Source of the DNA: a virus
DNA length: 47,912 nt
Virus record (IMG/VR): IMGVR_UViG_3300050026_000188
Strand: one strand, 5' to 3'
Under the pieces are notes generated by a model. It did no database searches, was not told where the DNA came from, and was given only the letters and a program-made list of their open reading frames with translations. The position numbers and the translations under genes are program-made. Of this stretch, positions 3,100 to 41,335 are shown piece after piece. Each line of letters starts with the position of its first letter. Position 1 is the first letter of the stretch.

Positions 3100-3105
3100 T
3101 AATCT

Positions 3106-4614: not shown

Positions 4615-5128
4615 GAAGGTTTTGTTGGGGCTCATGCTGCTAGTTTGCGTCACGGTTGCTTTTGCCGCGGTCAACGTAAAAGGTTTGATCGTTGACGCGC
4701 TTACGGGCTACACAGTGGCCGGCGCTGCCCCGAATAACTACACACTATGCGGTAACGGGACCGTGGGCACTTACCAGGCGTCATGCGGCGCGGCGGCTCC
4801 TGTTCGCACTTGCAACGCTAACGGCTGCTATATCCGATACTCAGACGGTACAATACACGCCTGGGGAACGATCACCACGGCGTCATCAGGCGGAACGCTT
4901 TCGAGCGGTACGATCACTTTCCCCACGGCATTTACAACTGTCGTGCAAAGTCTGTTGGTTTCTGGACAGAGTCAACCTGACAGCACAGACGACGCATACG
5001 TTACTTACACGAAGAGCGGAACGACTAGCGGCGCTACCGTAGTAATACGGTGCTCCATCAACATTAGCGGATCTGGTTGCTCTTCACTAAACGCCGTTCC
5101 CGTTGGCTGGATAGCCGATGGATACTAA
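4598..5128 (+). CDS. Small secreted protein with an H-type-lectin-like C-terminal domain
   Basis: ATG at 4598 with GAGGGG upstream; MKTMNKKVLLGLMLLVCVTVAFA-AV signal-peptide-like N-terminus; C-terminal ITFPTAFTTVVQSLLV...VTYTKSGTTSGATVV...VGWIADGY pattern. Confidence 0.45.
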   Translation: MKTMNKKVLLGLMLLVCVTVAFAAVNVKGLIVDALTGYTVAGAAPNNYTLCGNGTVGTYQASCGAAAPVRTCNANGCYIRYSDGTIHAWGTITTASSGGTLSSGTITFPTAFTTVVQSLLVSGQSQPDSTDDAYVTYTKSGTTSGATVVIRCSINISGSGCSSLNAVPVGWIADGY

Positions 5129-5915: not shown

Positions 5916-5987
5916 CAAAGCCGTCAATAATATACGATAAAAATAACATTTGCAACTTGAAAATAATTGTGCAATGCTTTCCGTAAT

Positions 5988-7214: not shown

Positions 7215-7273
7215 ACCGCAGAACGCCGCGCCTTTTTGTAACCGAAGCAAAGCAGTAAACCGGAGGACCAAAA

Positions 7274-8179
7274 ATGTTTCAGAAGTCCGTCAATCTTTAC
7301 AACCCGCTCGCAGTTGAGGGAGATTTCGCCGACGCGAATCCTCGCGCAACTGTACCCGCTGGGGAAGGCGGCCTTGTGGCCGGTCCCCTTGGAGTGACAG
7401 TCGGCCGCTTTGCCTGGGTTTCGGCAGACGGTAAGACAGTCACGAATTACGGAGAAGGCGCGGCCGCGCCGGATGGTTTCGTTCACCGCCAGGAAGGTGC
7501 AGCGCTGATTACTGCATACTTGGGGGAAGCGTCCAACCTGATCCTGGCTGGCTTCCCCGTCACTCTCCATAACGCCGGCAGTTTCTTCGCGAAGGCGAAC
7601 GGGCAGGCTTCCACTCTCCGCGGCTCGGTTTACGCGAGCTACGCAGACGGCTCCGTTTACATGGGCGCGGCTCCCGCCGGCTCGACTGCAACCGGCGCAA
7701 TCGGCGCAACGTTCACGGCGACGGGCACGGGTACCAGCCTGGCGGTCACTGCAGTAACCGGGCTGATCTCCATCGGAGACGTGATCTTGGGTACTGGCGT
7801 ACCTGCCGGGACCGCAATTCTCGCCCAGGTGAGCGGTCCAACCGGCGGCGCGGGAACGTATACCACCAGCGTTGCGACAACGGCAGCGGGCGTAACCGTA
7901 ACCAGCTTCGGCAACGTGCTCAACGTCTCCGCAGTTGCAACCGGCGTGCTCGCAGTTGGCGACGGCATTACCGGGACCGACGTACCTGCAGGCGCAACCA
8001 TCGCATCGCAGGTTAGCGGCGCGGCGGGCGGCGTGGGCGTGTATACGCTCAACATCCCGGCAACTGCTTACGCGGCTTCTACGGCGCTCACGGTTGCCGG
8101 CGGCGTCCTCACGAAGTTCGTAGCCAAGTCCGCTGTCAACGTCGGCGAGCTTGTCAAAATCTCAACGTGGGGGAACTAA
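7274..8179 (+). CDS. Head-associated structural protein with two internal ~45-aa Gly/Thr-rich repeats
   Basis: GDVILGTGVPAGTAILAQVSGPTGGAGTYT and GDGITGTDVPAGATIASQVSGAAGGVGVYT repeats; lies between scaffold and capsid genes. Confidence 0.35.
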   Translation: MFQKSVNLYNPLAVEGDFADANPRATVPAGEGGLVAGPLGVTVGRFAWVSADGKTVTNYGEGAAAPDGFVHRQEGAALITAYLGEASNLILAGFPVTLHNAGSFFAKANGQASTLRGSVYASYADGSVYMGAAPAGSTATGAIGATFTATGTGTSLAVTAVTGLISIGDVILGTGVPAGTAILAQVSGPTGGAGTYTTSVATTAAGVTVTSFGNVLNVSAVATGVLAVGDGITGTDVPAGATIASQVSGAAGGVGVYTLNIPATAYAASTALTVAGGVLTKFVAKSAVNVGELVKISTWGN

Positions 8180-8186
8180 GCCAGTC

Positions 8187-9218
8187 ATGGACCCAATACT
8201 CGTAGCGCTCGCAATGGACGCCGGCATTCACTTCATGGGCACGGAAGCCATGTTGCAACTGCCGAACGTGGCTCACAGCATCCGTGTCGCAATGGACGCT
8301 CAGCCGGCACTAATCACAACCAGCAACGCCGGTATCCCCGCGTTTCTTTCGACGTACATCGATCCCAAGTTGATTGAGATCCTGGTTGCGCCGATGAAGG
8401 CCGCGGAGATCGTCGGAGAGGAAGTCAAAAAGGGCGATTGGACAACGGATACAGCGATGTTCCCCGTTGTGGAATCAACCGGCGAGACTTCGAGCTACGG
8501 CGATTACAGCAATAACGGCGTGGCCGGCGCGAATACCAACTTTCCCCAGCGTCAGAGCTATCACTACCAGGTGATTACTCAGTGGGGCGAGAAGGAACTC
8601 GCGAAGGCGGCTCTTGCGAAAATCGACTGGGCGAATCGCGTCAACATCGCGAGCGTTCTCACCCTCAACAAATTCCAGAACAAGACGTACTTCTACGGCG
8701 TGGCCGGCCTGCAGAATTACGGCTTGCTCAACGATCCCAACCTTTACGCCCCCATCGCCCCCACCAACGAGGGCGGAAACATTACCTGGGCGAACAAGGA
8801 TGCTCTCGGGATCTACGCCGATATCCTCGCGCTCTTCACTCAGTTGCAGGCGCAGACCGGAAATACATCTCTGGTTGAGATGGATGCAAAGATGACGCTC
8901 GCGCTGTCTTCTGGCGCGATCGTCAACCTCGGTAAAGTCACTCAGTTCAACGTCAACGTCAAGACGACGATCAAGGATAACTTCCCCAACCTGCGAATCA
9001 TGACGGCTCCGGAATACTCGACAGCGGCGGGCAACCTTGTGCAACTCATCGTTGACGAAGTTGAAGGGCAGCGTACCGTTGAAGTCGCTTTCACCGAGAA
9101 ACTGCGGGCTCACCCGATTGTTATCGAGATGAGCGCCTTCAAGCAGAAGAAATCGCAGGGAACTTTCGGAAGCATTGTTTATCGCCCAATGTTTATCGCG
9201 GCGATGCTCGGCGTATAG
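8187..9218 (+). CDS. Major capsid protein (DUF2184-like)
   Basis: About 345 aa ORF in the capsid position; GGGGGA before ATG at 8187; family assignment is by gene order and general resemblance only. Confidence 0.55.
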   Translation: MDPILVALAMDAGIHFMGTEAMLQLPNVAHSIRVAMDAQPALITTSNAGIPAFLSTYIDPKLIEILVAPMKAAEIVGEEVKKGDWTTDTAMFPVVESTGETSSYGDYSNNGVAGANTNFPQRQSYHYQVITQWGEKELAKAALAKIDWANRVNIASVLTLNKFQNKTYFYGVAGLQNYGLLNDPNLYAPIAPTNEGGNITWANKDALGIYADILALFTQLQAQTGNTSLVEMDAKMTLALSSGAIVNLGKVTQFNVNVKTTIKDNFPNLRIMTAPEYSTAAGNLVQLIVDEVEGQRTVEVAFTEKLRAHPIVIEMSAFKQKKSQGTFGSIVYRPMFIAAMLGV

Positions 9219-9301
9219 CTCGGTAACTGTTGACGGTGTACAGTAATAAGAGGGCTGGGGGAATATCCTCAGCCCTCAAATTACATAACGAAGGGAATTT
9301 T

Positions 9302-9640
9302 ATGGCAAAGATTGTTATTGGCTGCAGGCTTCCAAACGGGTTGGTTTTGACTCACCCGATCAGCGGAGAGAGCGTGACTCTCGCGGGCTTGCATAGCTCG
9401 AAGATCATCGGCTCAACCCACGTATCAACCGAAGTCGATGCCGATTTCTGGGAAGCGTGGAAAGCAAAGTACAAGGATTTTACGCCGCTCAAGACTGGCG
9501 CGATCTTTGAGGCTCGCAACGAGACGGAAGCAATCTCGAAGGCGAAAGAACTCCGCAAGGAAAAAACAGGCTTCGAGCCGATGGCGACAGACGGCAAAGA
9601 TCCCAGGGCGAGCGGCGTAAAGAAAGCCGACGCAAAGTAA
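9302..9640 (+). CDS. Hypothetical head-module protein
   Basis: ORF with ATG at 9302 (MAKIVIG...); no recognised motif. Confidence 0.3.
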   Translation: MAKIVIGCRLPNGLVLTHPISGESVTLAGLHSSKIIGSTHVSTEVDADFWEAWKAKYKDFTPLKTGAIFEARNETEAISKAKELRKEKTGFEPMATDGKDPRASGVKKADAK

Positions 9641-9746
9641 CAATGAGCGAGAAGCGGCCTACGAAACGGACTCTTCCCCCGCAAGTCGGAGGAGTGCGAA
9701 TCAAGGCTAAACCTAACTTGGATTATTACGACGGGAGAAAATAACA

Positions 9747-9980
9747 ATGAGCGTCCGCGGGAAGTTTATGGTAAGTTCCGTCACGAACCTGAGTGCGACA
9801 AGCACTTACGTCAATGTGAAGTTGAGAGCGGTATACAGCAATAGCCCCGAAGACAATAGCTATTCGGCGGCAACACCGAGCGGAAGTATTGAGATGACCA
9901 TCACCAACCCGGCGGCGGTTGAGCAGCTACCAATCGGCGCACAATTTTACGTTGACTTCACCGCCGTAACCGAAGGGTAA
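9747..9980 (+). CDS. Small hypothetical structural protein
   Basis: 77-aa ORF with GGGAGA upstream; position in the head-tail joining block. Confidence 0.3.
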   Translation: MSVRGKFMVSSVTNLSATSTYVNVKLRAVYSNSPEDNSYSAATPSGSIEMTITNPAAVEQLPIGAQFYVDFTAVTEG

Positions 9981-9982
9981 CG

Positions 9983-10411
9983 ATGGCCGTTGCAGTCTTC
10001 AACTTGGCGAACTTCCAAGCTCGATATCCGCAGTTCAATGCCGTGAGTCCAACCAGGCTTGCGGCATTGTTCGTGGAAGCGGGCTTGTATCTATCCAACA
10101 CGGACTGCAGCCCCATTCAGGACTTGGGGAGACGCGGGATGCTGCTCAACATGCTTGTGGCGCACATCTCTTCTCTCTCAGGCGATCTCAGCGCAGACGG
10201 ACAGGCTCAGCCAGTGGGGAGAGTAAGCCAGGCGGCAGAGGGGACCGTATCCGCGAGCTTTGAGGGCGTACCGCCCACGCCGGGCACGGGCGCATGGTTC
10301 CAACAAACCCAATACGGCGCGGCCTTCTGGCAAGCTACGGCGAGCCTACGGGGTATGCGTTATCGTTCCCGCCCAACCGATCCCAACCAGGGGCGGCGCT
10401 GGGGGTATTAG
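9983..10411 (+). CDS. Head-tail adaptor-like protein (DUF4054-like)
   Basis: Size and position; N-terminal MAVAVFNLANFQARYPQF resembles DUF4054 proteins. Confidence 0.35.
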   Translation: MAVAVFNLANFQARYPQFNAVSPTRLAALFVEAGLYLSNTDCSPIQDLGRRGMLLNMLVAHISSLSGDLSADGQAQPVGRVSQAAEGTVSASFEGVPPTPGTGAWFQQTQYGAAFWQATASLRGMRYRSRPTDPNQGRRWGY

Positions 10412-24791: not shown

Positions 24792-25041
24792 GGCACTCGG
24801 GGCGCTCTTCGTCGGCATCCCATATCAGGCCGCAAGTATCACAAACGATCTGATCAAGTTGCCGGCGAGCTTTACAGTTTGGCAGGTTCAAAGCTGGTAT
24901 CCCCCTCACGTTCTAAATAACTAGGCTCAAAACTCTCATCTTCCCATTCCGCATACGTCTGCCCAGTCACATCTAAGAACGCTCGCCAGGCAGCCTCTTC
25001 GCGTGCGTATTTTTGCTTGAGGTACCAATATTGGCGATTGC

Positions 25042-25290
25042 TCACTGTTTGAACGAACTACCCGTCTCACTGCCGTCAACCGTGGCGTCGGCGACAACCC
25101 ATACAACAACGCCGCCCGGCTTAGTCACCCGGTATAACTCGCGGGCGAGAGCTTCAAAATTCCAAGAAAATCCCTTGTATTCGCGGAGGTTGTCATACGG
25201 AGGGGACGTAACTGTTAGCTGTACACTCTCGCTCGCTACAAGGCAACTGAGAGCCATCACGTTATCGCAGTTATATAGTTGCATAGCCAA
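25042..25290 (-). pseudogene. Truncated beta-class N6/N4 DNA methyltransferase (N-terminal fragment only)
   Basis: 82 aa carrying motif IV (TSPPY) and the following YRVTKPGGVVVWV block, then a stop; no downstream FxGxG motif; start overlaps the polymerase stop. Confidence 0.5.
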
Positions 25291-27265
25291 TGTCCCTCAA
25301 TATCGCGTGGCAATTGTCGAGATACCAGGCGTAGTCAATGTCATCCGGCAGTGAGTCCGGCAGAGTCAGGCAGGGCTTAGCGCCGTAGCTGAGGCTTACG
25401 GTGTTGCCGTTAGTGTTGTAGATGATTGAGCCGGGCGCGGATGTCGAGTAGTAGAATCTGATCACTTTGCCCATATACTCGGGCCGTTGCGGGGTGAAGC
25501 AAGATGCGTAAGCGCTCCCCGCATCCGCCAGCACGCCCGCCCGCTGCCATTTACGGCCGCTCTTCACCCATCCGTTAGCCTGCAGAGTGGCCGTCATATC
25601 GCGTATCTTTGTGCCCTTGAGCGGTCCCTCGCCCCAGAGCTTCACAGCGCCGCCGGCAACCTTGCGGACTGTCACAAATTTGCGGATATCCCGGCTCGCG
25701 GCGAGCGTATAAAGGATCGGCGTCCCCTTGCTGAGATATTCGGCCACGGCATCTGAGCAGATCTCCACATCGGGATTCTTCTTTTCGACCAGGCCGGCCT
25801 TTGAGTATTCCCCTTTGCGCTTTACCTTCCCGTCGATCTTCACTGCAAAGTAATTATTTACGTCTTTGGAATAAATGGCCTTGTAAGTATTGCTTTCCAT
25901 CTCCAAACCCGTGCTCCGCTCCCACTCTTCGATGAGCCGATCGCTCGAAGCGAGCAGATGGCGCGGGCAAAATGCCACAAACCCGTCAGTATTCGCAGAC
26001 ACAACAGGGATGCCGTTCGATTCATGCCACTCAATCAGCATCATGAGCGCAAGTTGCCCGGTGATGGTGGTTTGAATGAGCATCTCAGGGGCGAAAAGGA
26101 TGGAGAACGGGCTCCCAGTCTTCCCGAAAACGCCGTTGATCATAATCTTGCCGCCCTCGTTCTCTACCTCAGCCTTCGTGTATTCGGGAGTTCCTTTAGT
26201 AAGTGTTTTCTGTAGAGCCTTCGCCTTCAGACGCTCATCTTTGATCGCTGCATACTCATGCAGGAACGCGGGGCCGAGAGCCTTCGGATATTTTCCGGAG
26301 TTCAAGATCAGACTGGGATAGTAGCTGGCAACATCCGAATCCCTGAGTACAGCGTTTTCGTCGCTTCGGTACGCCACGCGCTTCTCGGAGGAGTGCAGGC
26401 CGCCGATCCCGAGCCGGTAGCGCGACGAGCCGATTTGGATCTCAAGTCCGTCTAGCTGGGCGGGCATGACGACGGAGCCACTCGGGCCAAGCCGGAATAC
26501 GGCCTCTCTGACCAGGGAGAACGCCTGCATGAGAGGTGCCGTCTGAAATTTGAGGAAGGATGGCGGCTCGTATTTGAAGACCAGATTCCAGTCAATCTCA
26601 GGCTTATAAATCTTCTGACCTAGAGCCTGCTCACAGCGGCGCTTTAGAACGGCTTCGGCAAGCTGAGCATCTGACTTACTTCGCAGATCAATCCCGTAGC
26701 GCTTGCTCAACTCCTGGCGCTGGTGGAGTTGGGGCGCGAGTGCATCGAATAGCCCCTCTAGGACTGAGAGATCATTTCCGCAATAGTCGTCTACTTCGGC
26801 GATCTCCGCAGGCGTGAGGTATTGATCCGGCGAGTAGGGAAGATCTCGCATCGTCTTGCAGTGGATTCGACCTGCGTACTGCTTTTGGCTGCCCGCGCCT
26901 GGCGCTACTTCCATCACATCGATGTGATCAGCCGGCCGCCACTCGGGGAGCCCTAACTCCCAGGGCTTTAGCTTCTGGACAATGATTTGATCATTGAGCC
27001 ATTTGAGTTGATCTGGGGTATAGCCCGAGAGCGCCGCGGCGATCATCGGTACATCGTAGTAATTGCCGTTGAAGCTCACGGTTGTAAAGATCTGGAATAG
27101 CGTGGTGATGCTCGCAACCGCCGCGGGCTCTAACCTCTCGCCCGCCCTCAGCGCGAACGTAAAGCATTCGCCGCCCTGAGGACGGAACTTGAGAAGCCAA
27201 AAGTTAGGAAAACATTCTGTGTCGTAAAATGCTACCGGCTTACCTGATGGTGGAGTGGGGATCAT
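25271..27265 (-). CDS. DNA polymerase, family B, with 3'-5' exonuclease
   Basis: Exo motifs FYDTE, NGNYYD, YCGND; Pol motif A DVASYYPSLI, motif B KIMINGVFGKTG, motif C variant SANTDG. Confidence 0.75.
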   Translation of the reverse strand: MIPTPPSGKPVAFYDTECFPNFWLLKFRPQGGECFTFALRAGERLEPAAVASITTLFQIFTTVSFNGNYYDVPMIAAALSGYTPDQLKWLNDQIIVQKLKPWELGLPEWRPADHIDVMEVAPGAGSQKQYAGRIHCKTMRDLPYSPDQYLTPAEIAEVDDYCGNDLSVLEGLFDALAPQLHQRQELSKRYGIDLRSKSDAQLAEAVLKRRCEQALGQKIYKPEIDWNLVFKYEPPSFLKFQTAPLMQAFSLVREAVFRLGPSGSVVMPAQLDGLEIQIGSSRYRLGIGGLHSSEKRVAYRSDENAVLRDSDVASYYPSLILNSGKYPKALGPAFLHEYAAIKDERLKAKALQKTLTKGTPEYTKAEVENEGGKIMINGVFGKTGSPFSILFAPEMLIQTTITGQLALMMLIEWHESNGIPVVSANTDGFVAFCPRHLLASSDRLIEEWERSTGLEMESNTYKAIYSKDVNNYFAVKIDGKVKRKGEYSKAGLVEKKNPDVEICSDAVAEYLSKGTPILYTLAASRDIRKFVTVRKVAGGAVKLWGEGPLKGTKIRDMTATLQANGWVKSGRKWQRAGVLADAGSAYASCFTPQRPEYMGKVIRFYYSTSAPGSIIYNTNGNTVSLSYGAKPCLTLPDSLPDDIDYAWYLDNCHAILRDIGYATI

Positions 27266-28104
27266 TACGCAGCGGCCGCGGCCTTCGGTTTGATCTCTTC
27301 AACGTAGAGATAAAGATCTAGCAAGAGCTTGCGATCAACTTCGATAAACTCCCCGTACTCTTCATCAGCGAGCATCCCGGCCACGTCTTCGAGGGCGGCA
27401 GTAACGCGCCGGATGAGTTCGGGATCGCGAGCAACCGGCTTCGGAACTTTGACCGCGCCCGGTTTCTTTACGTCGCTCCGCTCGATAGTGCCCTCTTTTT
27501 TCAAAACCTCATGCTGCTGAGCTTTGCTGAGCTTCGCGATTGCAACGGCCGCCGACTCTTTGACCCGGCCGGATTTCACCGCTTCGGCGGCTTCCTCTGA
27601 CAGAGAGATAAGCGCGATGCGGTCCTTTACGAACTTGTGGGCGGCCTTGAGTTCGCCCTCAGTCTTCGCGGTCGGGAAGTAGACGCCGGCGATCTGCTCA
27701 TCCGTCATCGCGTAGACGTTGAGAAGCCGCTTGATGTTGTGAGCGTCGTCAAGGGGAGTTGCGGGATTGCGAAAGCGATTCTCTGAGATGTTGATCAGAA
27801 ACGCTTCGCCTTCGCTGCATTGCACGTAGGTACAACGAACCTGCAGTTTGACCGGCGCGAGCCCGCGCTTGTTGATCTCGCTGATCGCACGCCAGCGAGA
27901 GAAGCCGGCAACCAGGACGGCCGCGCCGCCATCGTTGCGGATGACAACCGGCGTATGCTGCCCGCGCGCCAGGATATCGGTAATGAGCCATTCAATCTCA
28001 GGCTTTTCGTGACGACCGTTGAGATCGGGCTTGATCGTAATGTCTTCAGGGTAGAAGCGATACTCGGAGGTTCGCTTATGCTCAACTGCAAACTGTACTG
28101 CCAT
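27265..28104 (-). CDS. ParB-like nuclease-domain protein
   Basis: N-terminal TPVVIRNDGGAAVLVAGFSRWRAI block resembling the ParB N-terminal domain. Confidence 0.6.
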   Translation of the reverse strand: MAVQFAVEHKRTSEYRFYPEDITIKPDLNGRHEKPEIEWLITDILARGQHTPVVIRNDGGAAVLVAGFSRWRAISEINKRGLAPVKLQVRCTYVQCSEGEAFLINISENRFRNPATPLDDAHNIKRLLNVYAMTDEQIAGVYFPTAKTEGELKAAHKFVKDRIALISLSEEAAEAVKSGRVKESAAVAIAKLSKAQQHEVLKKEGTIERSDVKKPGAVKVPKPVARDPELIRRVTAALEDVAGMLADEEYGEFIEVDRKLLLDLYLYVEEIKPKAAAAA

Positions 28105-28106: not shown

Positions 28107-28304
28107 CTAAGCCTCTTTCTCATATTCCAAAATTCGCCCGCACTCTTTGCAAAATGGTGCAGATTTCTCTACAACGCCACGGATGCGGGTAAGGATTGAG
28201 AGAAGGCCGAAACGCCGCGGCTCGCGCCAGTAGCGCTCCCCAGGACTGATGACGGCTTTACACTCTTTGCACTCCCGAACGATCTTGCTACGCTTCCAAC
28301 TCAT
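28107..28304 (-). CDS. Small zinc-ribbon protein
   Basis: Two CxxC pairs (CKEC ... CKEC) in a 65-aa ORF. Confidence 0.35.
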   Translation of the reverse strand: MSWKRSKIVRECKECKAVISPGERYWREPRRFGLLSILTRIRGVVEKSAPFCKECGRILEYEKEA

Positions 28305-28364: not shown

Positions 28365-29318
28365 TTAGCCCATCGTCATATAACCTTCGGCGATCAAGTT
28401 GGCTTGCGTCCAACCGGCCGATATAAACGCCTGGTACGAAGCGCCGGCAGCCTTCGCGGTCATCTGGGGACCGCTAGAAGGGGATGCAGGAGCAGGCGGT
28501 GGAGGCGTCGGGGGAGCCGCAGCAACCGCAGGGGACGGCGGGATAGCCGGGATCGCGGCGGGCGAGGAAGGGTTTGCCGGTACCTGCAGGAATTGGGGGT
28601 TAGGTTGTACCGGGATTGGGGGCGGCGGCGCGGCAGCGACAGTAGCGGAAGGCACAGGCACAGGCATAGGGACCGTAGAAGCTGCCGGCGTCATGCTTGC
28701 GCCGGCAGGCAACGCCGATTGACCAAAGCCCGCTTCGTTTACATCGGGACCGAAGACGATCTCGGGACCGTATCCGCGGAGGCAAATCATCGAATGGTTG
28801 AGATAGATGCCCGGCTGAGACTGCGAGCCGTTCCCGTCAACCGTGCCGGCCACTTCAATAAAGTAACCAGGCTTGACGTAATCAACTTCCATCACTTGCA
28901 CCATTCCGCTCGCGTCGGGGCGGTAAACCTTCGGAGCGAAGCCGCCAGAGAACTTGAGAATCCAGTGACCCTTCCAACCTTCGTTATCGCAGGGCTTCCG
29001 GCCGCGCTTGTTCGGGACTGCAGAATCACCGTTTTCGATTTTCCAAGCAAAGCTCGGGCTCTGGGCGGCTTGTGGAAACGCCTTGTGGCCAACTGCCCAG
29101 ATGATTGCGCCCCATGATGTCTCTGCCCAGTGCTGCTCAGCGCCCTTTGGAATCGCGAGCGCGAAAAAGAAGTTGGTGCGAGATTGGCCGGCGTTTGGTC
29201 CGTTTTTGATGACTAGGGGTTTACCCTCAGCATCAGTGGTACTCCCTTTGTATAGGCTTCCCATCACCATACGACCAACGGGAAGTTGCGGTGGATTGAT
29301 ATTTACGCGATCTGCCAA
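28365..29318 (-). CDS. ssDNA-binding-like protein (DUF2815 / gp2.5-like) with Pro/Ala-rich linker
   Basis: TTG start with AGGAGA 6 nt upstream; sits beside a DUF2800-like gene; about 70-aa Pro/Ala-rich low-complexity segment before the C-terminal tail. Confidence 0.45.
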   Translation of the reverse strand: MADRVNINPPQLPVGRMVMGSLYKGSTTDAEGKPLVIKNGPNAGQSRTNFFFALAIPKGAEQHWAETSWGAIIWAVGHKAFPQAAQSPSFAWKIENGDSAVPNKRGRKPCDNEGWKGHWILKFSGGFAPKVYRPDASGMVQVMEVDYVKPGYFIEVAGTVDGNGSQSQPGIYLNHSMICLRGYGPEIVFGPDVNEAGFGQSALPAGASMTPAASTVPMPVPVPSATVAAAPPPPIPVQPNPQFLQVPANPSSPAAIPAIPPSPAVAAAPPTPPPPAPASPSSGPQMTAKAAGASYQAFISAGWTQANLIAEGYMTMG

Positions 29319-29413: not shown

Positions 29414-30544
29414 TCAACCCTTCCCAAATACTCTGCGTGCAGCAGTATTATTCTGTGGCACCAGTTTTACAGCGCCAGGAATAATTGAAGAGTAATTATT
29501 ACTGACGGCTTCGTCAAGTCCTAATCGATCCGCCTGAGCTGGCGAGACAACACCGGGTTTGCTAAGGTTTTTTCCCAGCATTTGACCGATAGTTATGAGT
29601 TGATCAATGGGAATATTCCACTGGCGGCGGCCCTTGCCCGGCTCTGCGACGTAATAGGGCACTGACGCGCCCGCTCTCAGGTTGGCGAGCGTCAACGCCC
29701 TAAGTCCTTCAACGCGAGCCCCTAGCCTCTCGTATGCCCTTTCGAGCATCCTGAGTTCAAGGCCGGCAGCCTGGGGCGTGAGGTTATGAGGTTGGCGAGC
29801 CGTTGCAAATTCCGCGTCACTGTATGCGGCTCTCTGCAGAGCTTCGCACGCATGGCGGCCGGGACAATGGCAGCACTCGGGATTTGTGGAAGCCATCGGC
29901 TTAGGGCTATACGCCTGGGTTGCCGCGGCCTGCATCGCGATCATATGGGCGCGGGCAGTGACTTCGCCCCATATGTAATTGTGCGTTCGGACGGGCTCGC
30001 CGCGGTGATAGCAGCGGGGTTGGATTACGGTAAAGCTCACTGAGATGTTGGCAGGATCTCCCAGTAGAGCAGGCTTCAACGTCTCGATAATTCCGGACGC
30101 ATAGAGCAAACCTTGCTTGTTGAAATACTCATCTACAAACCCGTGACCATACTTGTAGTCGAATACCTCAAGGTGCATTCGAGCGAGATCGAACGTCCAA
30201 ACGTCAGGAGTGCCGCCGCATTCCTCATGGATCTCGGGAATGCTAACCCACTCTTCGATATGAAGCATCCCCGGCGTGATTGGATTGATCCGGCGTGCAA
30301 CCGTCTCCGCGATGAGTTCCGCGCCGTCGAGCATCTCGCCGGTGATGATTACACCGTTGGGGGCGCTTGAGCCCTCAGAGTACAACCGGCCTGCCAACAT
30401 CTCAGTACCAACCCAATGGGCCGCGGTCCCTTCAACGCTCTCGGGGGTATCGTCTTGGGAAAACTCCTTATTCATTTTCGGCCATTGGGCACACTTAGAC
30501 CAGGCCGCCGCGCCAGAAGGGGGAAGAAACGCATGTACAGTCAT
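29414..30544 (-). CDS. PD-(D/E)xK nuclease, DUF2800-like (Cas4/RecB-like, Cys cluster)
   Basis: N-terminal FLPPSGAAAWSKC, internal ECCHCPGRHAC cysteine cluster; adjacency to the SSB-like gene. Confidence 0.55.
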   Translation of the reverse strand: MTVHAFLPPSGAAAWSKCAQWPKMNKEFSQDDTPESVEGTAAHWVGTEMLAGRLYSEGSSAPNGVIITGEMLDGAELIAETVARRINPITPGMLHIEEWVSIPEIHEECGGTPDVWTFDLARMHLEVFDYKYGHGFVDEYFNKQGLLYASGIIETLKPALLGDPANISVSFTVIQPRCYHRGEPVRTHNYIWGEVTARAHMIAMQAAATQAYSPKPMASTNPECCHCPGRHACEALQRAAYSDAEFATARQPHNLTPQAAGLELRMLERAYERLGARVEGLRALTLANLRAGASVPYYVAEPGKGRRQWNIPIDQLITIGQMLGKNLSKPGVVSPAQADRLGLDEAVSNNYSSIIPGAVKLVPQNNTAARRVFGKG

Positions 30545-31242
30545 CCGATTATCGCTTTCACGGCTGCCATAACTTGAGGTACCAGATCAAGCCGGTTTGC
30601 GAGCAATGGCAGAGAGGGCACGCCGACAGCGACAACGGCCGCGGAAAGCTGCTCATTCGTGAGCGTCTTCGCATTGATCGCCGCCGACGCAACCGAGAGA
30701 AGCGTTACATATGACTGGCGATCTTCTACAACGGCCGCCGGCACTGGGGGAGCGGGGATCGCGGGAGCGGCAGCGGCGGGCAACATCATCAGCGCTTTGA
30801 GTTCGGCTTCAACCAGCGCAACGGTACCCTCATCGATCCCGCGCTTCTTGCGCCAGGTAGAATCAGCGTTTTTCGCCCGGCTGCTCGCATGAATACGCTC
30901 ATCCCAGGGCAGGCCCGTTCTATCGAGACGATCATTCTCAGCGACGGCGGCCACTACCGGCGGGTTGGGAACCAGGGCGATACCTGCAGCCGGCGCAGTT
31001 ACGCCGAAGATTGCGGCAGCTTCAAGCTCGCTAACGGGCTCTTCGTCTACGTTTACGGCTTCGGGGATCGGATGGGCAGCAAAGACGGCCGCGGCTTCGA
31101 GATCCTCAGGCTCATCACCAGTTGTAAAGGCCGGAATCTCTGCCGCAGCTTCCTCTGAATAGGGAAAATCGAGAATGAATCCGCTAAGTGACTCACGTTG
31201 GGCTTTGCTCAGTAAAGATAGATCCACAGTAATTTGCAGCAT
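30541..31242 (-). CDS. Hypothetical replication-module protein
   Basis: ATG at 31242 with GGAGGGG upstream; conserved-looking LPWDERIHASSRAKNADSTWRKKRG block; Pro/Ala-rich segments. Confidence 0.35.
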   Translation of the reverse strand: MLQITVDLSLLSKAQRESLSGFILDFPYSEEAAAEIPAFTTGDEPEDLEAAAVFAAHPIPEAVNVDEEPVSELEAAAIFGVTAPAAGIALVPNPPVVAAVAENDRLDRTGLPWDERIHASSRAKNADSTWRKKRGIDEGTVALVEAELKALMMLPAAAAPAIPAPPVPAAVVEDRQSYVTLLSVASAAINAKTLTNEQLSAAVVAVGVPSLPLLANRLDLVPQVMAAVKAIIG

Positions 31243-31381
31243 ATAGATAATTTCCCCTCCCAAGGGTTTATATGAGAAATTTAGCTCATTACTAACGCCC
31301 GCGTCAACATGTAATTTACAAATACCGAGATACACGATACAAATAACGAAGCGGTCAACATAACGTCAGGTAGCTTACATA

Positions 31382-33124
31382 ATGCCCCCCGTCCTACGCC
31401 CCTTCCAAGTCGATTTAGAGCGCGATTGCTACGCAGCATGGGACGCCGGCGCGGTCAACGTTATGCCAGTGGCGGCCACGGGCAGCGGTAAGACGGTCCT
31501 GCTCTCCAAAATTGCTTATGACGAACCAGGGGCATCTATCGCGGTTGCCCATCGTCAAGAGCTTGTGAGTCAGATCGCCGTAGCGCTTGCCCGTAATGGC
31601 GTCAGGCATCGCGTAGTTGGCGCGAAAAAAGGCTCCGCCCTGGTGCGAGTGATTACGGCGCTGCAGGTTGCCGAACTCGGTTACAGCTTCCTCGATCCGA
31701 ACGCTAAAACCGGCGTGGGCGGCGTTGATACCGTAATCCGGATGGCTAATGAGCCCTGGTTTCTGCAGGTGCGATTACAGATCCAAGACGAAGGGCACCA
31801 CGTACTAAAAACTAACAAGTGGGGGAAGGTTGTTGAGATGTTCCCCAACGCCCGCGGGCTCTTCCCTACCGCTACGCCGTCGCGAGCGGATGGTAAGGGG
31901 CTGGGGCGGCACGCCGACGGCATCACAGACGCGTTAGTGCTCGCGCCATCCATGCGGGGCATTATCAACATGGGGTATCTGACGGATTACCGTCTTCTCT
32001 GCCCGAAGTCTACTTTGGATCTCACAAACGTAGCGATAAGCTCAGCAACCGGCGATTTCAATATTGATCAGGTACGGAAGGCCGTTCACGATTCGAGCAT
32101 CACGGGCGACGTTGTAAAACACTATCTGCAATTCGCCGCCGGCAAACTGGGGATCACATTCGCGGTAGACGTTGAGGAAGCCGGCAAGATCGCGAACGCC
32201 TTCAAAGCCCAGGGCGTACCGGCCGAAGTGGTGAGCGCGAAGACTCCCGATGCACTCCGCGCCGCGATCCTTCGGCGCTTCAAGCGGCGCGAGATCCTTC
32301 AACTCGTAAACGTCGATCTCTTCGGCGAAGGCTTCGATCTGCCGGCGATAGAGGTTGTGAGCTTCGCCAGGCCGACTCAATCCTTTGCGCTCTACTCTCA
32401 GCAATTCGGCCGCGCCCTACGGCTGATGATCGCCGATGAGCTTCAATCTCGCTGGGGAACCTTCACCGATGAGCAGCGCCGCGAGTTGATCGCTCGAAGC
32501 GTCAAGCCGAAGGCGATCATCTTGGATCACGTAAACAACATCGTTCGGCACAATGGACCGCCGGATAGGGCTCGCGATTGGACGCTTGACCGGCGAGAGA
32601 AACGGGCGAAGGATTCCGATGCGATCCCTATCCGCGTCTGTATTGCGTGCCTACAGCCTTACGAAGCGTTCTATAAGAAATGCCCATATTGCGGGTATTA
32701 CATGGCTCCCGATGCCATCGGCCGAAGTAAGCCCAAGTTTGTAGACGGGGATCTCACCGAATTGGATGCGGAGACGCTCGCAGCGCTCCGCGGGGATATT
32801 GCTCGGATCGATGGTGATTTCTACGCGCCCCAGGGCTTAGACCATTACGCCGCAATGGGGGCAAGGAAGCGCCACGCGGAACGGCAAGAGGGACAGAGAG
32901 CTTTGCGTAACGCGGTCGCGTGGTGGGCAGGTACAGAGCACGCCCGCGGGTACTCAGAGAGCGAGAGTTACCGGCGGTTTTTCTTCCGCTTCGGCATCGA
33001 TGTTGCAAACGCCCAAACTCTCGGGACACGGGAAGCCAGCGAGTTAGCCCTCAAAGTAAATTTGGAATTGCAGAAATACGGCGTTGACGGTACCGTTATT
33101 TCTACAGCGTTAGAGATAATGTGA
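31382..33124 (+). CDS. Superfamily-2 DEAH-type helicase with C-terminal zinc ribbon
   Basis: RPFQ, Walker A ATGSGKT, DEGHH box, CIACLQPYEAFYKKCPYC. Confidence 0.75.
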   Translation: MPPVLRPFQVDLERDCYAAWDAGAVNVMPVAATGSGKTVLLSKIAYDEPGASIAVAHRQELVSQIAVALARNGVRHRVVGAKKGSALVRVITALQVAELGYSFLDPNAKTGVGGVDTVIRMANEPWFLQVRLQIQDEGHHVLKTNKWGKVVEMFPNARGLFPTATPSRADGKGLGRHADGITDALVLAPSMRGIINMGYLTDYRLLCPKSTLDLTNVAISSATGDFNIDQVRKAVHDSSITGDVVKHYLQFAAGKLGITFAVDVEEAGKIANAFKAQGVPAEVVSAKTPDALRAAILRRFKRREILQLVNVDLFGEGFDLPAIEVVSFARPTQSFALYSQQFGRALRLMIADELQSRWGTFTDEQRRELIARSVKPKAIILDHVNNIVRHNGPPDRARDWTLDRREKRAKDSDAIPIRVCIACLQPYEAFYKKCPYCGYYMAPDAIGRSKPKFVDGDLTELDAETLAALRGDIARIDGDFYAPQGLDHYAAMGARKRHAERQEGQRALRNAVAWWAGTEHARGYSESESYRRFFFRFGIDVANAQTLGTREASELALKVNLELQKYGVDGTVISTALEIM

Positions 33125-33429
33125 GTGAGAGGCATTACCGAGCCGTGATGATCTATATTGCAGGACCGATGACCGGAACCCCAGAGTTCAATTTCCCAGC
33201 TTTTCATGCGGCGGCTAAAACTCTCAGGCACGAAGGCTTTGATGCTGTAAGCCCGGCTGAGATTTGCCCCGAACTCGGTAGAACCTGGGATTACTACATG
33301 CGAAAAGATCTCGCAGAGATGCTCAAGTGCGACACGATCTATCTGCTCAAGGGCTGGGAGAAATCAAAAGGCGCTTCGCTTGAGCATTGCGTTGCTGAAG
33401 CTCTGGGAATGACGGTGATCTTTGAATAG
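33121..33429 (+). CDS. DUF4406-like protein (nucleoside 2-deoxyribosyltransferase-like fold)
   Basis: IYIAGPMTG ... DTIYLLKGWEKSKGASLE pattern. Confidence 0.6.
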   Translation: MSERHYRAVMIYIAGPMTGTPEFNFPAFHAAAKTLRHEGFDAVSPAEICPELGRTWDYYMRKDLAEMLKCDTIYLLKGWEKSKGASLEHCVAEALGMTVIFE

Positions 33430-33904
33430 ATCGGTCATCCAATGGGCCATTCGCAACCGAGTGAATGAGATCGCGCTCAGGGAACTCCGCGCAATTTTCA
33501 ATCTCGAAGGCGCTCACGCAATTCCGACAATGCTGGCGACCAGTGAGGCAGCCGTGCAAGCCAAAGTGAGACTCGAAGCCGCTCACAAGGGGCTCAAGCT
33601 CTGGAGAAATAACGTTGGGGCGCTCTTAGATAGCAGGGGCGTGCCGGTACGCTACGGGCTCGCGAATGATAGCGCCATTCTCAATAAGAGCATCAAGTCG
33701 GGGGATTTGATCGGATGGCGGCCGGTGCTGATTGGACCTGAGCACGTCGGGAGCATGATCGCCCAGTTTGTAAGCCGTGAGTGCAAGCGTCCCGACTGGC
33801 AATACACCGGCGACGATCACGAAAAGGCCCAGTTACGCTGGGCGGAAGCGGTGGTAGCGGACGGCGGCGATGCGGCTTTCTGTAACTCAGAAGGTAGCTT
33901 ATAA
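33422..33904 (+). CDS. VRR-NUC-like nuclease
   Basis: LWRNNVGA...SGDLIGW...AQFVSRECKRP...Q pattern resembling the VRR-NUC PD-(D/E)xK core. Confidence 0.5.
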   Translation: MNRSVIQWAIRNRVNEIALRELRAIFNLEGAHAIPTMLATSEAAVQAKVRLEAAHKGLKLWRNNVGALLDSRGVPVRYGLANDSAILNKSIKSGDLIGWRPVLIGPEHVGSMIAQFVSRECKRPDWQYTGDDHEKAQLRWAEAVVADGGDAAFCNSEGSL

Positions 33905-34609
33905 ATGGTCTACGTCGGAGGTAAATCTAAAGTCGCGAAAGATCTGGCTGCCATTATCTCGCTCTTCAGTCCCCGCGTTTATTGGGAGCCCTTCGTGGGA
34001 GCCGGGACCGTCATCCAATACGTCAAAGCTCCCGTAAAAATTGGAAGCGATTTAGACATTCATATCGCTTCGTTTTTGGAGTGCGTTCGAGACGGATGGC
34101 TTCCGCCGGCTGAGGTTTCCGAGAGTGACTATCAGTTTCTCAAGAGTTATGTACCTCTCACTCGCGAGTGCTACGCGACAAAGGCGGCCATCGGTTATGG
34201 ATGCTCTTTCGGAGGTAAATGGTTTGGCGGATTTGCGCGAAACACCCGGCATAGTTCCTATGCCGGGTATGTCTATAACTCATCCCGCAAACAAAGCCCT
34301 TTGTTGCAAGGTATTCAATTCAAAAATCAGAGTTACCTTGACGGTCTGCCCGAAGGTGTTGATCTCATCTATTGCGATCCCCCTTACGCAAATACCACCA
34401 GTTGCGGGAGCGGCCGACAGTTCGATTCAAAGCTATTTTGGGACTGGTGTAGAGCCGTAGCTCTTCGAGGTATCACCGTCCTGGTTACAGAGTTCACCGC
34501 GCCGGATTTCGCAATGGAGATTTGGCGCAAAGAGAAGCCGGCCGATTTGCGGCGCGGAGATAACAAAGGTATGACAGAGAAATTGTTTCTAGTTAGGGGA
34601 GCAGCATGA
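33905..34609 (+). CDS. DNA adenine methyltransferase, Dam family
   Basis: Motif I YWEPFVGAGTV and motif IV LIYCDPPY in alpha-class order. Confidence 0.85.
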   Translation: MVYVGGKSKVAKDLAAIISLFSPRVYWEPFVGAGTVIQYVKAPVKIGSDLDIHIASFLECVRDGWLPPAEVSESDYQFLKSYVPLTRECYATKAAIGYGCSFGGKWFGGFARNTRHSSYAGYVYNSSRKQSPLLQGIQFKNQSYLDGLPEGVDLIYCDPPYANTTSCGSGRQFDSKLFWDWCRAVALRGITVLVTEFTAPDFAMEIWRKEKPADLRRGDNKGMTEKLFLVRGAA

Positions 34610-35037: not shown

Positions 35038-37401
35038 GTGAATCAATTCATCGTTTACCGAAGGTCCGACAAGGCTCCCGTTGACTACCGCACGGGCAAG
35101 CCCGCGAACGCTCACGATTCCTCAAATTGGACAGACGTAGCAACAGCATCCAGTGTTGCTCAGGCATGGGGCGCTGAGTGGGGCATCGGTTTTGTTCTTA
35201 CGGAGCAATCGCAGATCGCTGTGATCGATGTGGACGGTTGCCGCAATCCGCAGACTGGGGAAATAAGCCTCATCGCTCAAACATTGATCACCATGCTTGC
35301 TGGTGCTTATGTTGAGATCAGCATCGGTGGGAAGGGCATCCACATCTGGTTTCGTTATAGCGGGGCGATGCCCCCGCACGCGAGCAGGGCGGCCGGAATT
35401 GGCGAGTTTTATCACAAGGATAGATACATCGCGATTGGCGCTCCTTATGCGGCTCCCAGCTTCACAAACGGAAGTCTGGGGACGGACCATACTGTATCTC
35501 TTCCATCTCTGATTGCTACGTTCTTTCCCCCTGACGCTTCGAGCGTCGGTGAGAGCGAATGGACTACCGAGCCCCGCGAAGATTGGAACGGGCCGCTAGA
35601 GGATAGCGAGTTGTTGCGCCGCGCCATGCAGAGCCGCTCGACGGCAAGCGCCTTCGGCGGTAAGGCGTCCTTTGCGGACTTGTGGCTCGCTAACGAGTCT
35701 GTACTCGCTGTGAGCTACCCTGACGCCAACGGGAGAGCCTACGACGCGAGCGCCGCCGATGCTGCCCTGGCTCAGCACTTGAGCTTTTGGACGGGTGGAG
35801 ATTGCGCTCGTATCGAGCGATTGATGAGGGGCTCAAAGCTAGTCAGGGAGAAGTGGGAACGTAACGCAGACGTGTACTCCGGTCCGGGTATGGGATATAT
35901 CCCCCGCACCATCCTGGGCGCTTGTGGTCGGCAGCTTGAGGTACTCTCTGATGCCGCCAGCGCCCCCGTACCGCCCCCGCCGGGCACGGTGAGCCATGCG
36001 CCCACCCCCAGGGGCGGCGATGGCTTCCTGGACTCTGAGAAGCAACAGGCTCACTTTGGGCAGTGCGTCTATGTGAGCGGCCAAAACAGAGCCTTAGTGC
36101 CTGACGGCTCGCTAATGAAGCCCGACGCCTTCCGCGTGCGATACGGCGGTTTCAATTTCAATCTCGATACTCAGAATATGAAGACAACCCGGGACGCCTG
36201 GGAAGCGTGGACGCAAAACCAGGTTTACAAATGCACTGAGGTAGACGGGATATGCTTCAAGCCCAATCTACCGGCGCGGAGCATCGTACACGCCAACGGT
36301 CAGACCTTTATCAACACCTTTATCCCCGTCGACATTCGGCGCGTTGTGGGCGACGCCAGTCCCTTCCTCAACCATCTCGCGAAGGTACTGCCCGATGAGC
36401 GCGACCGTACGATTTTGCTCTCGTATATGGCGGCGTGCGTCCAACATCAGGGAATCAAATTCCAATGGGCTCCCTTGCTGCAGGGCGTTGAGGGGAACGG
36501 CAAGACGCTCTTTGCGCGATGCGTAGAGCAGGCCGTTGGTACTCGATACACCTATTGGCCGAAGGCAGCGAAGATCTCCGCAACCTTCAATGCATGGATG
36601 GCTAACAAAGTCTTCTATGCGGTCGAAGATATTTATGTTCCCGACTCGAAGCGCGAGATCCTCGAAGACTTGAAGCCGATGATCACGGGGGACAAAATCG
36701 AGATCGAAGCGAAGGGCATCGATCAATTCATCTCGGATATTTGCGGTAACTTTATGTTCAATTCCAACCATCTTGACGCGATCCGGAAGACTGAGAATGA
36801 TCGCCGCTTTTGCGTGCTCTTTAGCGCTCAGCAACAGTCAAGCGACCTGAGACGGGACGGACTAACGGAGAGTTACTTTGTAGCCTTGTACAACTGGCTT
36901 AGAGAAGAGGGCTACGCGATAGTCAACGAGCTTCTATTTACCTACGCGATCCCCGCGGAGTTGAATCCCGCCGGCGACTGCCAGCGAGCGCCGGTCACCA
37001 CCAGCACCTCTAAGGCCATCAAAGACGGCCTGGGCAGCCTTGAGCAAGAGATCGCGGAAGCCGTCGCCCAGGGCTTGCCGGGCTTCTCTGGTGATTGGAT
37101 ATCTACAACCTGGCTTGAGCGCCTTCTAGAGCGGATGCGGCTAAACAAGATATCACACTCGAAGCGTAAACAGATCCTTGAGCAGATGGGTTATATCTAC
37201 CATCCCGCGCTCACTGACGGCCGCCCCAACAATCCCGTGCTGCCCGACAACACAAAGCCGCGGCTCTTCGTACTCGCCGGATCCCTGACTTCGCAGATCC
37301 CGACGGCCGCGGCAGCCACGAAGCATTATGAAGCCGCCAACGCAAATAAGAGCCCCGTAGGGCTCCCGTTCGCTGCTCATCAGTTTGGGCGCTCTAACTA
37401 G
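35038..37401 (+). CDS. DNA primase-helicase (PrimPol-like N-terminus + SF3 helicase)
   Basis: IAVIDVDG primase-type DxD motif; Walker A GVEGNGKTLF and Walker B FYAVEDI; GTG start with AAGGGG upstream. Confidence 0.75.
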   Translation: MNQFIVYRRSDKAPVDYRTGKPANAHDSSNWTDVATASSVAQAWGAEWGIGFVLTEQSQIAVIDVDGCRNPQTGEISLIAQTLITMLAGAYVEISIGGKGIHIWFRYSGAMPPHASRAAGIGEFYHKDRYIAIGAPYAAPSFTNGSLGTDHTVSLPSLIATFFPPDASSVGESEWTTEPREDWNGPLEDSELLRRAMQSRSTASAFGGKASFADLWLANESVLAVSYPDANGRAYDASAADAALAQHLSFWTGGDCARIERLMRGSKLVREKWERNADVYSGPGMGYIPRTILGACGRQLEVLSDAASAPVPPPPGTVSHAPTPRGGDGFLDSEKQQAHFGQCVYVSGQNRALVPDGSLMKPDAFRVRYGGFNFNLDTQNMKTTRDAWEAWTQNQVYKCTEVDGICFKPNLPARSIVHANGQTFINTFIPVDIRRVVGDASPFLNHLAKVLPDERDRTILLSYMAACVQHQGIKFQWAPLLQGVEGNGKTLFARCVEQAVGTRYTYWPKAAKISATFNAWMANKVFYAVEDIYVPDSKREILEDLKPMITGDKIEIEAKGIDQFISDICGNFMFNSNHLDAIRKTENDRRFCVLFSAQQQSSDLRRDGLTESYFVALYNWLREEGYAIVNELLFTYAIPAELNPAGDCQRAPVTTSTSKAIKDGLGSLEQEIAEAVAQGLPGFSGDWISTTWLERLLERMRLNKISHSKRKQILEQMGYIYHPALTDGRPNNPVLPDNTKPRLFVLAGSLTSQIPTAAAATKHYEAANANKSPVGLPFAAHQFGRSN

Positions 37402-40435: not shown

Positions 40436-41335
40436 ATGACACCCAATAACTACCCCGTAATTACACCGCTAGCCATTCGGGGTAATTCTAAGCGCCCGTT
40501 TGCATTGTGGATGCCCGGCGCGGTAATGTGGGAAGCCAGGGATATGCTCAGTGATCGTCAAAAACGTTTCGTCTTCCATCAGGCTCGCATTACTGATGGT
40601 GCAAAGGCTTACGTATTGGCAGGTTACAGCGAGCAGGGAGCGGCTCAAGGCGCTTCGCGTCTGTTACAGAACGTTGAGATACAGGAAGCTATAGAGGTTG
40701 AGCGGGCGGACCTGGCCCGTGTCGCGAGCCTGAGCCCCGAATGGGTTTTGAATCGATGGATGTTGATCGCCAGCGCGGACCCGAGAGATCTGATCCATAC
40801 CCGCATCGGCTGCTGTCGGCATTGCTGGGGCATTGATAACAAACGGGAATGGATGGAACACGAATACGCTACCGCGCTCAACGAAGCTCTGACTTGCATG
40901 TTGCTGCCGCCGGCCTTCGAGGGTGGCCTAGGGTACTCGCCGACTCGCGAGCCTAACCCTGACTGCCCTAAGTGCAAGGGCGAAGGCTTGCCGCGGACCT
41001 GGCTCGCCGACTCCCGCAAGCTGAGCCGTTCGGCCGCGGCTCTCTTCGCTGGCGTAAAGCAGACGAAGGATGGGATTGAGATCAAGATGCACGATCAGCC
41101 CGAAGCGCTCAAGTCGCTCGCCGATTACCTGGGGATGCAGAACAAGAGCAGCGCCGATGTAAAGCTGGCTGCGGCTCTGGTGGTGGGCGGGAGCGCTAAG
41201 GATCTCTCAGACGATGAGCTTGCCGGCATCATTGAGCGGGGGCGGTTGCGGAGGGCTCGAGCTGCGACTTTGGGGGTATCTGCGGGGGTATTATCGCCGG
41301 CGGCGTTGCCAAGTAAGACAATCGAGGGCACTTAG
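40436..41335 (+). CDS. terS: Terminase small subunit-like protein (SPP1 G1P / Terminase_2-like) with Cys-rich insert
   Basis: LSDRQKRFVFHQARITDGAKAYVLAGYSEQGAAQGASRLLQNVEIQEAI...RVASLSPEWVLNRWMLIASADPRDL matches the small-terminase N-terminal pattern; CCRHC / CPKC cysteines. Confidence 0.65.
   Translation: MTPNNYPVITPLAIRGNSKRPFALWMPGAVMWEARDMLSDRQKRFVFHQARITDGAKAYVLAGYSEQGAAQGASRLLQNVEIQEAIEVERADLARVASLSPEWVLNRWMLIASADPRDLIHTRIGCCRHCWGIDNKREWMEHEYATALNEALTCMLLPPAFEGGLGYSPTREPNPDCPKCKGEGLPRTWLADSRKLSRSAAALFAGVKQTKDGIEIKMHDQPEALKSLADYLGMQNKSSADVKLAAALVVGGSAKDLSDDELAGIIERGRLRRARAATLGVSAGVLSPAALPSKTIEGT

Follow-up and report, generated by a model that had tools for sequence, protein, structure and literature searches.

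NTDG was published in 2011 as the motif C signature of a subgroup of phage family-B DNA polymerases (PolBs), the 'PolIIphages', named after their similarity to Pol II (Kazlauskas & Venclovas, PMC3201878), and a survey in 2020 described MotifC and the KxY motif as divergent in the crAss-like group (EpsilonN-like PolB clade; Kazlauskas et al., PMC7544198). In both classifications the group falls with the primer-dependent PolBs. In addition, Yutin et al. reported in 2024 that phage DNA polymerase genes have been swapped in situ, with 96 genomes of the Casjensviridae encoding a family-A polymerase (PolA) and 30 a PolB, Serratia phage JS26 being an example of the latter (PMC11348598). Here, we analyzed a polymerase of 664 amino acids (aa) encoded at positions 25271-27265 of the virus record IMGVR_UViG_3300050026_000188 from IMG/VR, a stretch of 47,912 nucleotides that is referred to as the window throughout. 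An earlier note on this DNA, made from the letters alone, had described the product as a compact PolB whose motif C reads SANTDG where DTD is usual. The product of the open reading frame (ORF), which had not been annotated before, is a family-B DNA polymerase typical of a known clade and very probably the conventional replicative enzyme of an uncultured tailed phage.

A family-B DNA polymerase with an altered motif C

The ORF has the extent given in the earlier note and lies on the minus strand, which had not been stated there. Its product has a proofreading exonuclease domain, the DEDD-type 3'-5' exonuclease motifs ExoI to ExoIII being N-terminal to the polymerase domain with palm motif A and then motif B (Table 1). 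The three exonuclease motifs and motifs A and B had all been read from the sequence before, and each was found to be invariant or nearly so among 43 diverse homologues, as was a YxGG-like G288-G289. Residues without any exception in this set were D15, E17, D71, Y161, D165, D311, K373, N425, T426, D427, N470 and Y472. Motif B aligns with the Kx3NSxYG of Sulfolobus solfataricus PolB1 (Sso PolB1) and KOD polymerase. The SANTDG string is real, as read in the translation: of the two Asp residues of a canonical DTD, the first is replaced by Asn (codon AAT) and the second, which binds metal, is kept.

Several lines of evidence assign the protein to family B. The ORF matched phrog_1252 'DNA polymerase' in PHROGs (E 1.3e-175); Pfam gave no matches at all, and NCBIfam gave weak matches to archaeal PolBs and nothing more. 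Searching the sequences of the PDB with phmmer retrieved Sso PolB1 (1S5J, E 1e-5), with 'vsaNTDGf' set on 'lygDTDSl'. With a family profile built from the 43 homologues, which reach down to 21% identity, 1S5J rose to E 5.5e-12 and was followed by KOD/Tgo/9N, Pol alpha, the ASFV polymerase, Escherichia coli Pol II (E 1.9e-6) and poxvirus polymerases, the sequence matches in the PDB being PolBs only. Moreover, the top 50 Foldseek matches of the predicted structure were all PolBs, with E-values down to 6e-17, so that the family-B identity proposed earlier is upheld by sequence, profile and fold alike.

The profile places motif A on D404 of KOD, NTDG on KOD 'iysDTDGf' and D427 on KOD D542. Since NTDG thus aligns with a DTDG, the final Gly is nothing unusual, many PolBs having it, and the change is confined to the first Asp. 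A standard DTD missed through misalignment, for which the earlier note had allowed, is excluded: single-sequence and profile alignments both put NTD on DTD, and the sole other similar string, NTNG at residues 617-620, lies in the unrelated C-terminal region. A further change, absent from the earlier note, affects the KxY motif, the lysine of which is replaced by N470 ('VNNY'); the phmmer and profile alignments agree on this position, and the Asn is also present in all distant relatives. The departures at N425 and N470 are published variation within PolB and do not exclude membership of the family.

The PolB N-terminal domain is absent, ExoI being found at residue 15 while ExoII aligns, in the family profile, to residues ~205-220 of KOD. 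Motifs A and B are 62 residues apart and motifs B and C 54. The small size of the enzyme is thus explained by the missing N-terminal domain together with short fingers, as reflected in the A-to-B distance. 'Compact' is a true description of a 664-aa polymerase but does not set it apart, the median length in the family being 661 aa.

NTDG is the hallmark of a large clade of phage polymerases

The motif was present in all 44 closest metagenomic homologues (65-82% identity). Residue counts were obtained over 150 representatives of 50%-identity clusters, which share 39-63% identity with the query; the residues of motifs A, B and C were kept in all or nearly all of them (Table 1), and the catalytic residues are under strong purifying selection. 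At 42-45% identity, the polymerases of the cultured phages NP1, Skure and AchV4 also have SANTDG, and NTDG was still found at 21-26% identity in the crAss-like phage cr52_1, Leuconostoc phage 1-A4, a Rheinheimera Barbavirus, Klebsiella phage VLCpiS10a and Flavobacterium phage Fpv20, in the last of which the gene is split. The polymerase of Enterococcus phage SZ1 has NTDA instead. At E <= 1e-3 the family comprised 4435 cluster representatives, 1529 of them at E <= 1e-30, and homologues were identified in 1017 records of cultured phages. The 664-aa polymerase clusters with RNA-primed, not protein-primed, PolBs, and the E. coli enzyme did not come out as its closest solved relative, Sso PolB1 obtaining the better score with the family profile.

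The earlier note had implied that NTDG is unusual. This was not supported, as the motif is an invariant and published mark of the whole clade (PMC3201878, PMC7544198). The group of phage PolBs that it characterizes is very large and has been described before, and the finding itself is ordinary. Its value as a discovery is small, given that the motif, the clade and the interchange of PolA and PolB are in the literature of 2011, 2020 and 2024. Those close homologues for which a source is named bear the label 'hypothetical protein', and because no Pfam model exists for the family, such polymerases are typically left under that label in metagenomes. A compact proofreading PolB of 660 aa from a clade that replaces two residues deemed essential in model PolBs is a reasonable target for enzymology.

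Two distant relatives show unusual gene arrangements. In Flavobacterium phage Fpv20 (locus 1477-4544) two separate coding sequences (CDSs) make up the NTD-type PolB, one for the exonuclease half and one for the polymerase half, with a 666-bp ORF between them that suggests an inserted mobile element. Leuconostoc phage 1-A4 (locus 953-3345) has two adjacent CDSs annotated 'DNA polymerase'. The DNA polymerase of phage IME199 (PMC10590003) was considered as a characterized relative but discarded, being a phi29-like enzyme of phages that have terminal inverted repeats; nor do its catalytic positions D30, E32, D112, D251, D596 and Y639 map onto the NTD-type enzyme of SZ1.

PolA and PolB alternate in the same gene slot

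The polymerase lies in a module with a DUF2800 nuclease, and the earlier note described such modules as more often paired with family-A enzymes. To place it among related modules, 80 IMG/VR loci with relatives of the window's DUF2800 protein (31-100% identity) were collected and the polymerase gene within 10 kb was classed. An NTDG PolB was encoded in 35 of the 80 loci, as judged by the family hidden Markov model, and a PolA in 30 (phmmer against ORF7 of phage Enc34, E 1e-21 to 1e-61), and all six PolA examples that were sampled matched Pfam DNA_pol_A alone. The other 15 loci, mostly truncated, had neither. The statement that these modules often carry PolA was thus a fair one. All polymerase-bearing loci with at least 46% DUF2800 identity encode PolB, and PolA predominates below this value.

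Enc34 (4463-10334) and AchV4 (4054-9784), both members of the Casjensviridae, provide a clean case of the published in-situ swap. The order exonuclease - SSB (single-stranded DNA-binding protein) - polymerase - endonuclease - helicase is common to both, the polymerase being a PolA in Enc34 and an unrelated NTDG PolB in AchV4. JS26 was among the best cultured-phage matches to the window polymerase. Since one slot holds either PolA or PolB, the NTDG enzyme appears functionally equivalent to a replicative polymerase.

Possible roles of N425 and N470

In ternary complexes of TgoT/KOD, D404 and D542 bind metals A and B, E580 and D404 bind metal C, and D540, which is the first motif-C Asp, does not figure among the ligands listed (PMC7763228). 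Moreover, primer-independent PolBs (piPolBs) do without this Asp, yet are highly active (PMC7544198). Judging from these papers and from the conservation described above, we infer that an Asn at the first position of motif C would be compatible with two-metal catalysis.

The second substitution concerns a residue with a well-described function. The KxY lysine (K706 in RB69, K498 in phi29, K814 in Pol delta as well as K967 in Pol epsilon) hydrogen-bonds the n-2 primer base and is all but indispensable for polymerization in these model PolBs (PMC4333401). With N425 the active site loses a negative charge and with N470 a positive one, both near the primer terminus. It is conceivable from the sequences, if rather unlikely, that the exchanges of Asp for Asn and of Lys for Asn may be coupled, giving the clade a distinct hold on the primer 3' end. 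Were this so, minor-groove sensing, pol/exo partitioning, metal preference or tolerance of modified DNA might be altered; tolerance of modified DNA comes to mind because both the 7-deazaguanine-modifying Queuovirinae and the crAss-like phages have a replicase of this clade. The divergence of MotifC and KxY is already published, and only a mechanistic consequence of this kind would be new. A search of the literature for a contact between the first MotifC Asp and the KxY Lys (D621/K706 in RB69, D456/K498 in phi29) found nothing usable.

Replicative function and alternative readings

Judged from its family, motifs, conservation, fold and gene context, the 664-aa enzyme is very probably the replicative, proofreading, primer-extending PolB of the phage, and a conventional one. 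The AEP primase/SF3-helicase encoded at 35038-37401 would make primers and is the likely source of those used by the PolB, which would extend them by two-metal catalysis with D311 of motif A and the second motif-C Asp, D427. N425 would then take the place of a residue that is dispensable in other active PolBs. The gp2.5-like SSB, the DUF2800 nuclease, the SF2 helicase and the endonuclease would complete a recombination-assisted replication module. Priming is expected to be conventional, since the genome assembles as a circle, no inverted terminal repeats (ITRs) were found in the window, and a primase is present. Several points weigh against this assignment. No biochemically characterized member of the NTDG clade was found in the literature, no clamp or processivity factor was detected in the window, and the predicted structure has pLDDT values below 50 at residues 489-501, 525-550 and 591-643, in the thumb region. 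Furthermore, the KxY Lys is reported to be essential in RB69, phi29 and Pol epsilon (PMC4333401), and with this residue missing the handling of the primer terminus must differ somehow.

A repair or translesion polymerase resembling E. coli Pol II or the archaeal B2 enzymes, with bulk replication left to a host polymerase or to the AEP prim-pol, would be in keeping with the name given to the group in 2011 (PMC3201878) and with the archaeal B2/G2 PolBs, which likewise keep one MotifC Asp and act in translesion synthesis (PMC7544198); the NrS-1-type prim-pol domain of the 787-aa protein could in principle polymerize DNA. We nevertheless consider this very unlikely, as the Exo motifs of B2/G2 are degraded (PMC7544198) whereas ExoI to ExoIII are all invariant in the window polymerase. 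The genome moreover has no PolA- or PolB-type gene besides this one, which fills the slot of the replicative PolA of sister phages and is exchanged with it in situ. The scores of the solved relatives (E 1.9e-6 for Pol II against 5.5e-12 for Sso PolB1) also speak against a Pol II-like enzyme. Many cultured lytic phages have no polymerase other than one of this family, which is at odds with a catalytically dead relic that keeps only exonuclease or structural functions. Such a relic could be argued for from the mutants K706A of RB69 and K967A of Pol epsilon, in which polymerization is nearly abolished (PMC4333401), and from the one-Asp archaeal B2 enzymes, once considered inactivated (PMC7544198). 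However, across thousands of phage genomes neither the substituting residues (N425 in 150 of 150 and N470 in 149 of 150 representatives) nor D311, K373, D427 or Y472 vary, which points to selection on a working active site and not to decay, and makes this the least probable of the readings weighed here.

Protein priming of the phi29/PRD1 type, or primer independence as in piPolBs, would be suggested by the exonuclease domain standing at the very N-terminus, phi29 DNA polymerase also having no PolB N-terminal domain, and by the piPolBs, which also lack the first MotifC Asp and a canonical KxY (PMC7544198). The spacing of the motifs argues otherwise, since neither TPR1 nor TPR2 would fit into A-to-B and B-to-C distances of 62 and 54 residues. 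In phi29 DNA polymerase the corresponding distances are ~134 and ~75 residues. Those of KOD are 83 and 55 by residue numbers (PMC7763228). The KTRG motif is absent from the 664-aa sequence, the window has a 77-bp direct overlap at its ends and no ITRs, it encodes TerS and TerL and a primase-helicase, and both published classifications put the group with primer-dependent PolBs (PMC3201878, PMC7544198). The earlier note had considered protein priming unlikely for want of a terminal-protein gene; no terminal-protein signature was found in the window, and the primase, the lack of ITRs and the short spacings likewise make protein priming unlikely. Taken together, protein priming and primer independence appear slightly less probable still than a translesion role.

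Genome and replication module

Positions 1-77 of the window are identical to positions 47836-47912, and these identical ends indicate a circularly assembled, complete genome of ~47.8 kb, with 56% GC; no tRNAs were found in the window. TerL, a portal, a tail sheath, a tape measure, a baseplate wedge, a tail fibre and TerS are encoded, which is the gene set of a contractile-tailed phage. A homing-endonuclease-like ORF (phrog_314; 962-1639, plus strand) is located directly upstream of TerL (1606-3099, plus strand) and overlaps it. TerS (40436-41335, plus strand) is ~9 kb from TerL around the circle, with a 1220-aa ORF and several small ORFs between them. This 1220-aa ORF (44232-47894, minus strand), which lies between TerS and the genome junction, gave a sub-threshold Pfam match to the RHS repeat only and no PHROG match. 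Another IMG/VR contig, IMGVR_UViG_3300048765_000027, is 99.96% identical to the window and is without ~236 bp (24958-25193). The indel is intergenic, just downstream of the polymerase stop and between this gene and the convergent tail-side gene; nothing resembling a promoter or a terminator was found in it, nor any notable repeats.

The polymerase gene is the last of a leftward operon that begins with the gene at 30541-31335, with 1 nt shared between its start codon and the stop codon of the ParB-like gene upstream (Table 1). The setting of nuclease, SSB, ParB-like protein and helicase seen by the earlier note is borne out by Pfam and PHROGs, with the SSB being gp2.5-like, and a relative with a 72%-identical polymerase keeps DUF2800 ... 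SSB-like ... ParB-like ... PolB and the divergent helicase. The description of the module as DUF2800/DUF2815 was correct for the nuclease and apt only functionally for the SSB. The latter had no match to Pfam DUF2815/Enc34_ssDNA-bd (PF10991) at E <= 1, against a score of 5e-29 for AchV4_0074, and BLASTP between the two proteins was not significant; the window SSB belongs to phrog_7011 instead and is a functional analogue.

Transcribed divergently from this operon are the genes for the helicase, the DUF4406 protein, the endonuclease, the methyltransferase and the primase, along with one for a small HTH protein. Endonucleases at the equivalent position are encoded in AchV4 (VRR_NUC, PMC7996906) and Enc34 (annotated 'endonuclease'). 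In the 787-aa primase Pfam identified NrS1-1_pol-like_HBD, an NrS-1-type helix bundle (E 4e-16), and DUF5906 (E 2e-18). Klebsiella phage VLCpiS10a has genes annotated 'nucleoside 2-deoxyribosyltransferase' and 'DNA methyltransferase' (3020-3411) after its NTD-type polymerase, and a link of the DUF4406 and methyltransferase genes near NTD-type polymerases to nucleotide or DNA modification is possible.

In NP1 (7792-8745) and Skure (7841-8794) a gene for a 317-aa protein annotated 'replicative clamp' or 'DNA polymerase beta subunit' is located directly upstream of the PolB gene. It adjoins the 7-deazaguanine (DpdA/QueCDE) cluster and has no Pfam match. No homologue was found in the window or in the 80 DUF2800-module loci, and the processivity of the window polymerase must thus come about otherwise than in NP1 and Skure. 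The ParB-like gene and the SSB were considered as counterparts and rejected, as neither has any similarity to the clamp-like protein.

Table 1 Features of the polymerase and of the surrounding replication genes in the window. Counts are given over cluster representatives.
Feature	Coordinates	Strand	Remarks
Family-B DNA polymerase, NTDG ('PolIIphages'/crAss-like-related) type, 664 aa	25271..27265	-	ATG-to-stop ORF
N470-N-Y472 at the KxY site, Lys to Asn	25850..25858	-	Asn 149/150; aligns with KNY (Sso PolB1) and KKY (KOD)
Motif C S423-A-N425-T-D427-G428	25982..25999	-	N425 and D427 each 150/150; published signature (PMC3201878)
Motif B K373-I-M-I-N-G-V-F-G-K382	26120..26149	-	Lys 149/151, Arg 2/151
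Motif A D311-V-A-S-Y-Y-P-S318, catalytic Asp D311	26312..26335	-	D311 in 151/151; aligns with KOD D404 'DFRSLYPS'
ExoIII Y161-C-G-N-D165	26771..26785	-	Y161 and D165 invariant
ExoII N66-G-N-Y-Y-D71	27053..27070	-	D71 invariant; aligns with NGDNFD of KOD and Sso PolB
ExoI D15-T-E17	27215..27223	-	D15 and E17 invariant, 43 diverse homologues
ParB-like protein (HTH_ParB)	27265..28104	-	PF17762 E 1.1e-5; phrog_1033
65-aa protein, weak zinc-ribbon matches	28107..28304	-	Sub-threshold Pfam Zn_ribbon matches only
gp2.5-like ssDNA-binding/annealing protein, Pro/Ala-rich C-terminal half	28365..29318	-	phrog_7011 E 2e-71
DUF2800 (PD-(D/E)XK/Cas4-like) exonuclease	29414..30544	-	PF10926 E 1.3e-27; phrog_69 'exonuclease'
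First gene of the leftward replication operon, unknown function	30541..31335	-	phrog_11133
SF2 (SNF2/ResIII-type) helicase, divergent	31382..33124	+	ResIII and Helicase_C; phrog_16
DUF4406 (nucleoside 2-deoxyribosyltransferase-like) gene	33121..33429	+	
Endonuclease	33422..33904	+	phrog_93 E 3.6e-15
Dam-type methyltransferase	33905..34609	+	
AEP primase-polymerase with D5/SF3-type helicase domain, 787 aa	35038..37401	+	phrog_1829 'DNA primase' E 5.6e-118

Comparison with known polymerases and modules

Archaeal replicative PolBs (1S5J; KOD/Tgo/9N; Pyrobaculum calidifontis 5MDN) are the best solved matches by sequence, profile and fold, at 14-18% identity. They share the order of the motifs and the palm architecture with the window polymerase, and motif C of KOD also ends in TDG. 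In contrast to the window enzyme, they possess an N-terminal domain of ~130 residues, longer fingers with an A-to-B distance of 83 instead of 62 residues, the canonical D540 and KKKY. The piPolBs likewise lack the first MotifC Asp and are active, and phi29 DNA polymerase likewise begins directly with the exonuclease domain; unlike these systems, the window has no TPR1 or TPR2, no KTRG, no terminal protein and no ITRs, and encodes a dedicated primase. Among the described phage groups, the NTDG of the 'PolIIphages' and the profoundly different MotifC and KxY in the crAss-like group correspond to the two deviations of the window polymerase. PolBs of crAss-like phages have QANTDG and N-D-Y (INDY in cr52_1), at E 2e-33 and ~26% identity, a relationship of pairwise and profile homology only.

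As regards gene order, Hafnia/Enterobacter phage Enc34 and other Casjensviridae have primase, exonuclease, SSB, polymerase, endonuclease and helicase arranged as in the window, but the polymerase of the Enc34-type module is a Pfam DNA_pol_A protein with no similarity to that of the window. Full-length homologues (42-45% identity, E ~1e-140 to 1e-152) are encoded in the Queuovirinae (Pseudomonas phage NP1, Escherichia phage Skure/Seuratvirus) and in the Casjensviridae (Achromobacter phage AchV4, Serratia phage JS26), and those of NP1, Skure and AchV4 share the Exo and A/B/C motifs, SANTDG and VNNY with the window polymerase. The PolBs of NP1 and Skure have an N-terminal extension of ~50 residues and the clamp-like gene upstream, both of which are lacking in the window, and all four phages are siphoviruses, whereas the window phage carries the sheath and baseplate genes of a contractile tail. 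Finally, AchV4 has, like the window, the order DUF2800 - SSB - PolB - endonuclease - helicase together with an AEP primase-helicase; its SSB is a genuine member of DUF2815, whereas that of the window belongs to the different, gp2.5-like family.

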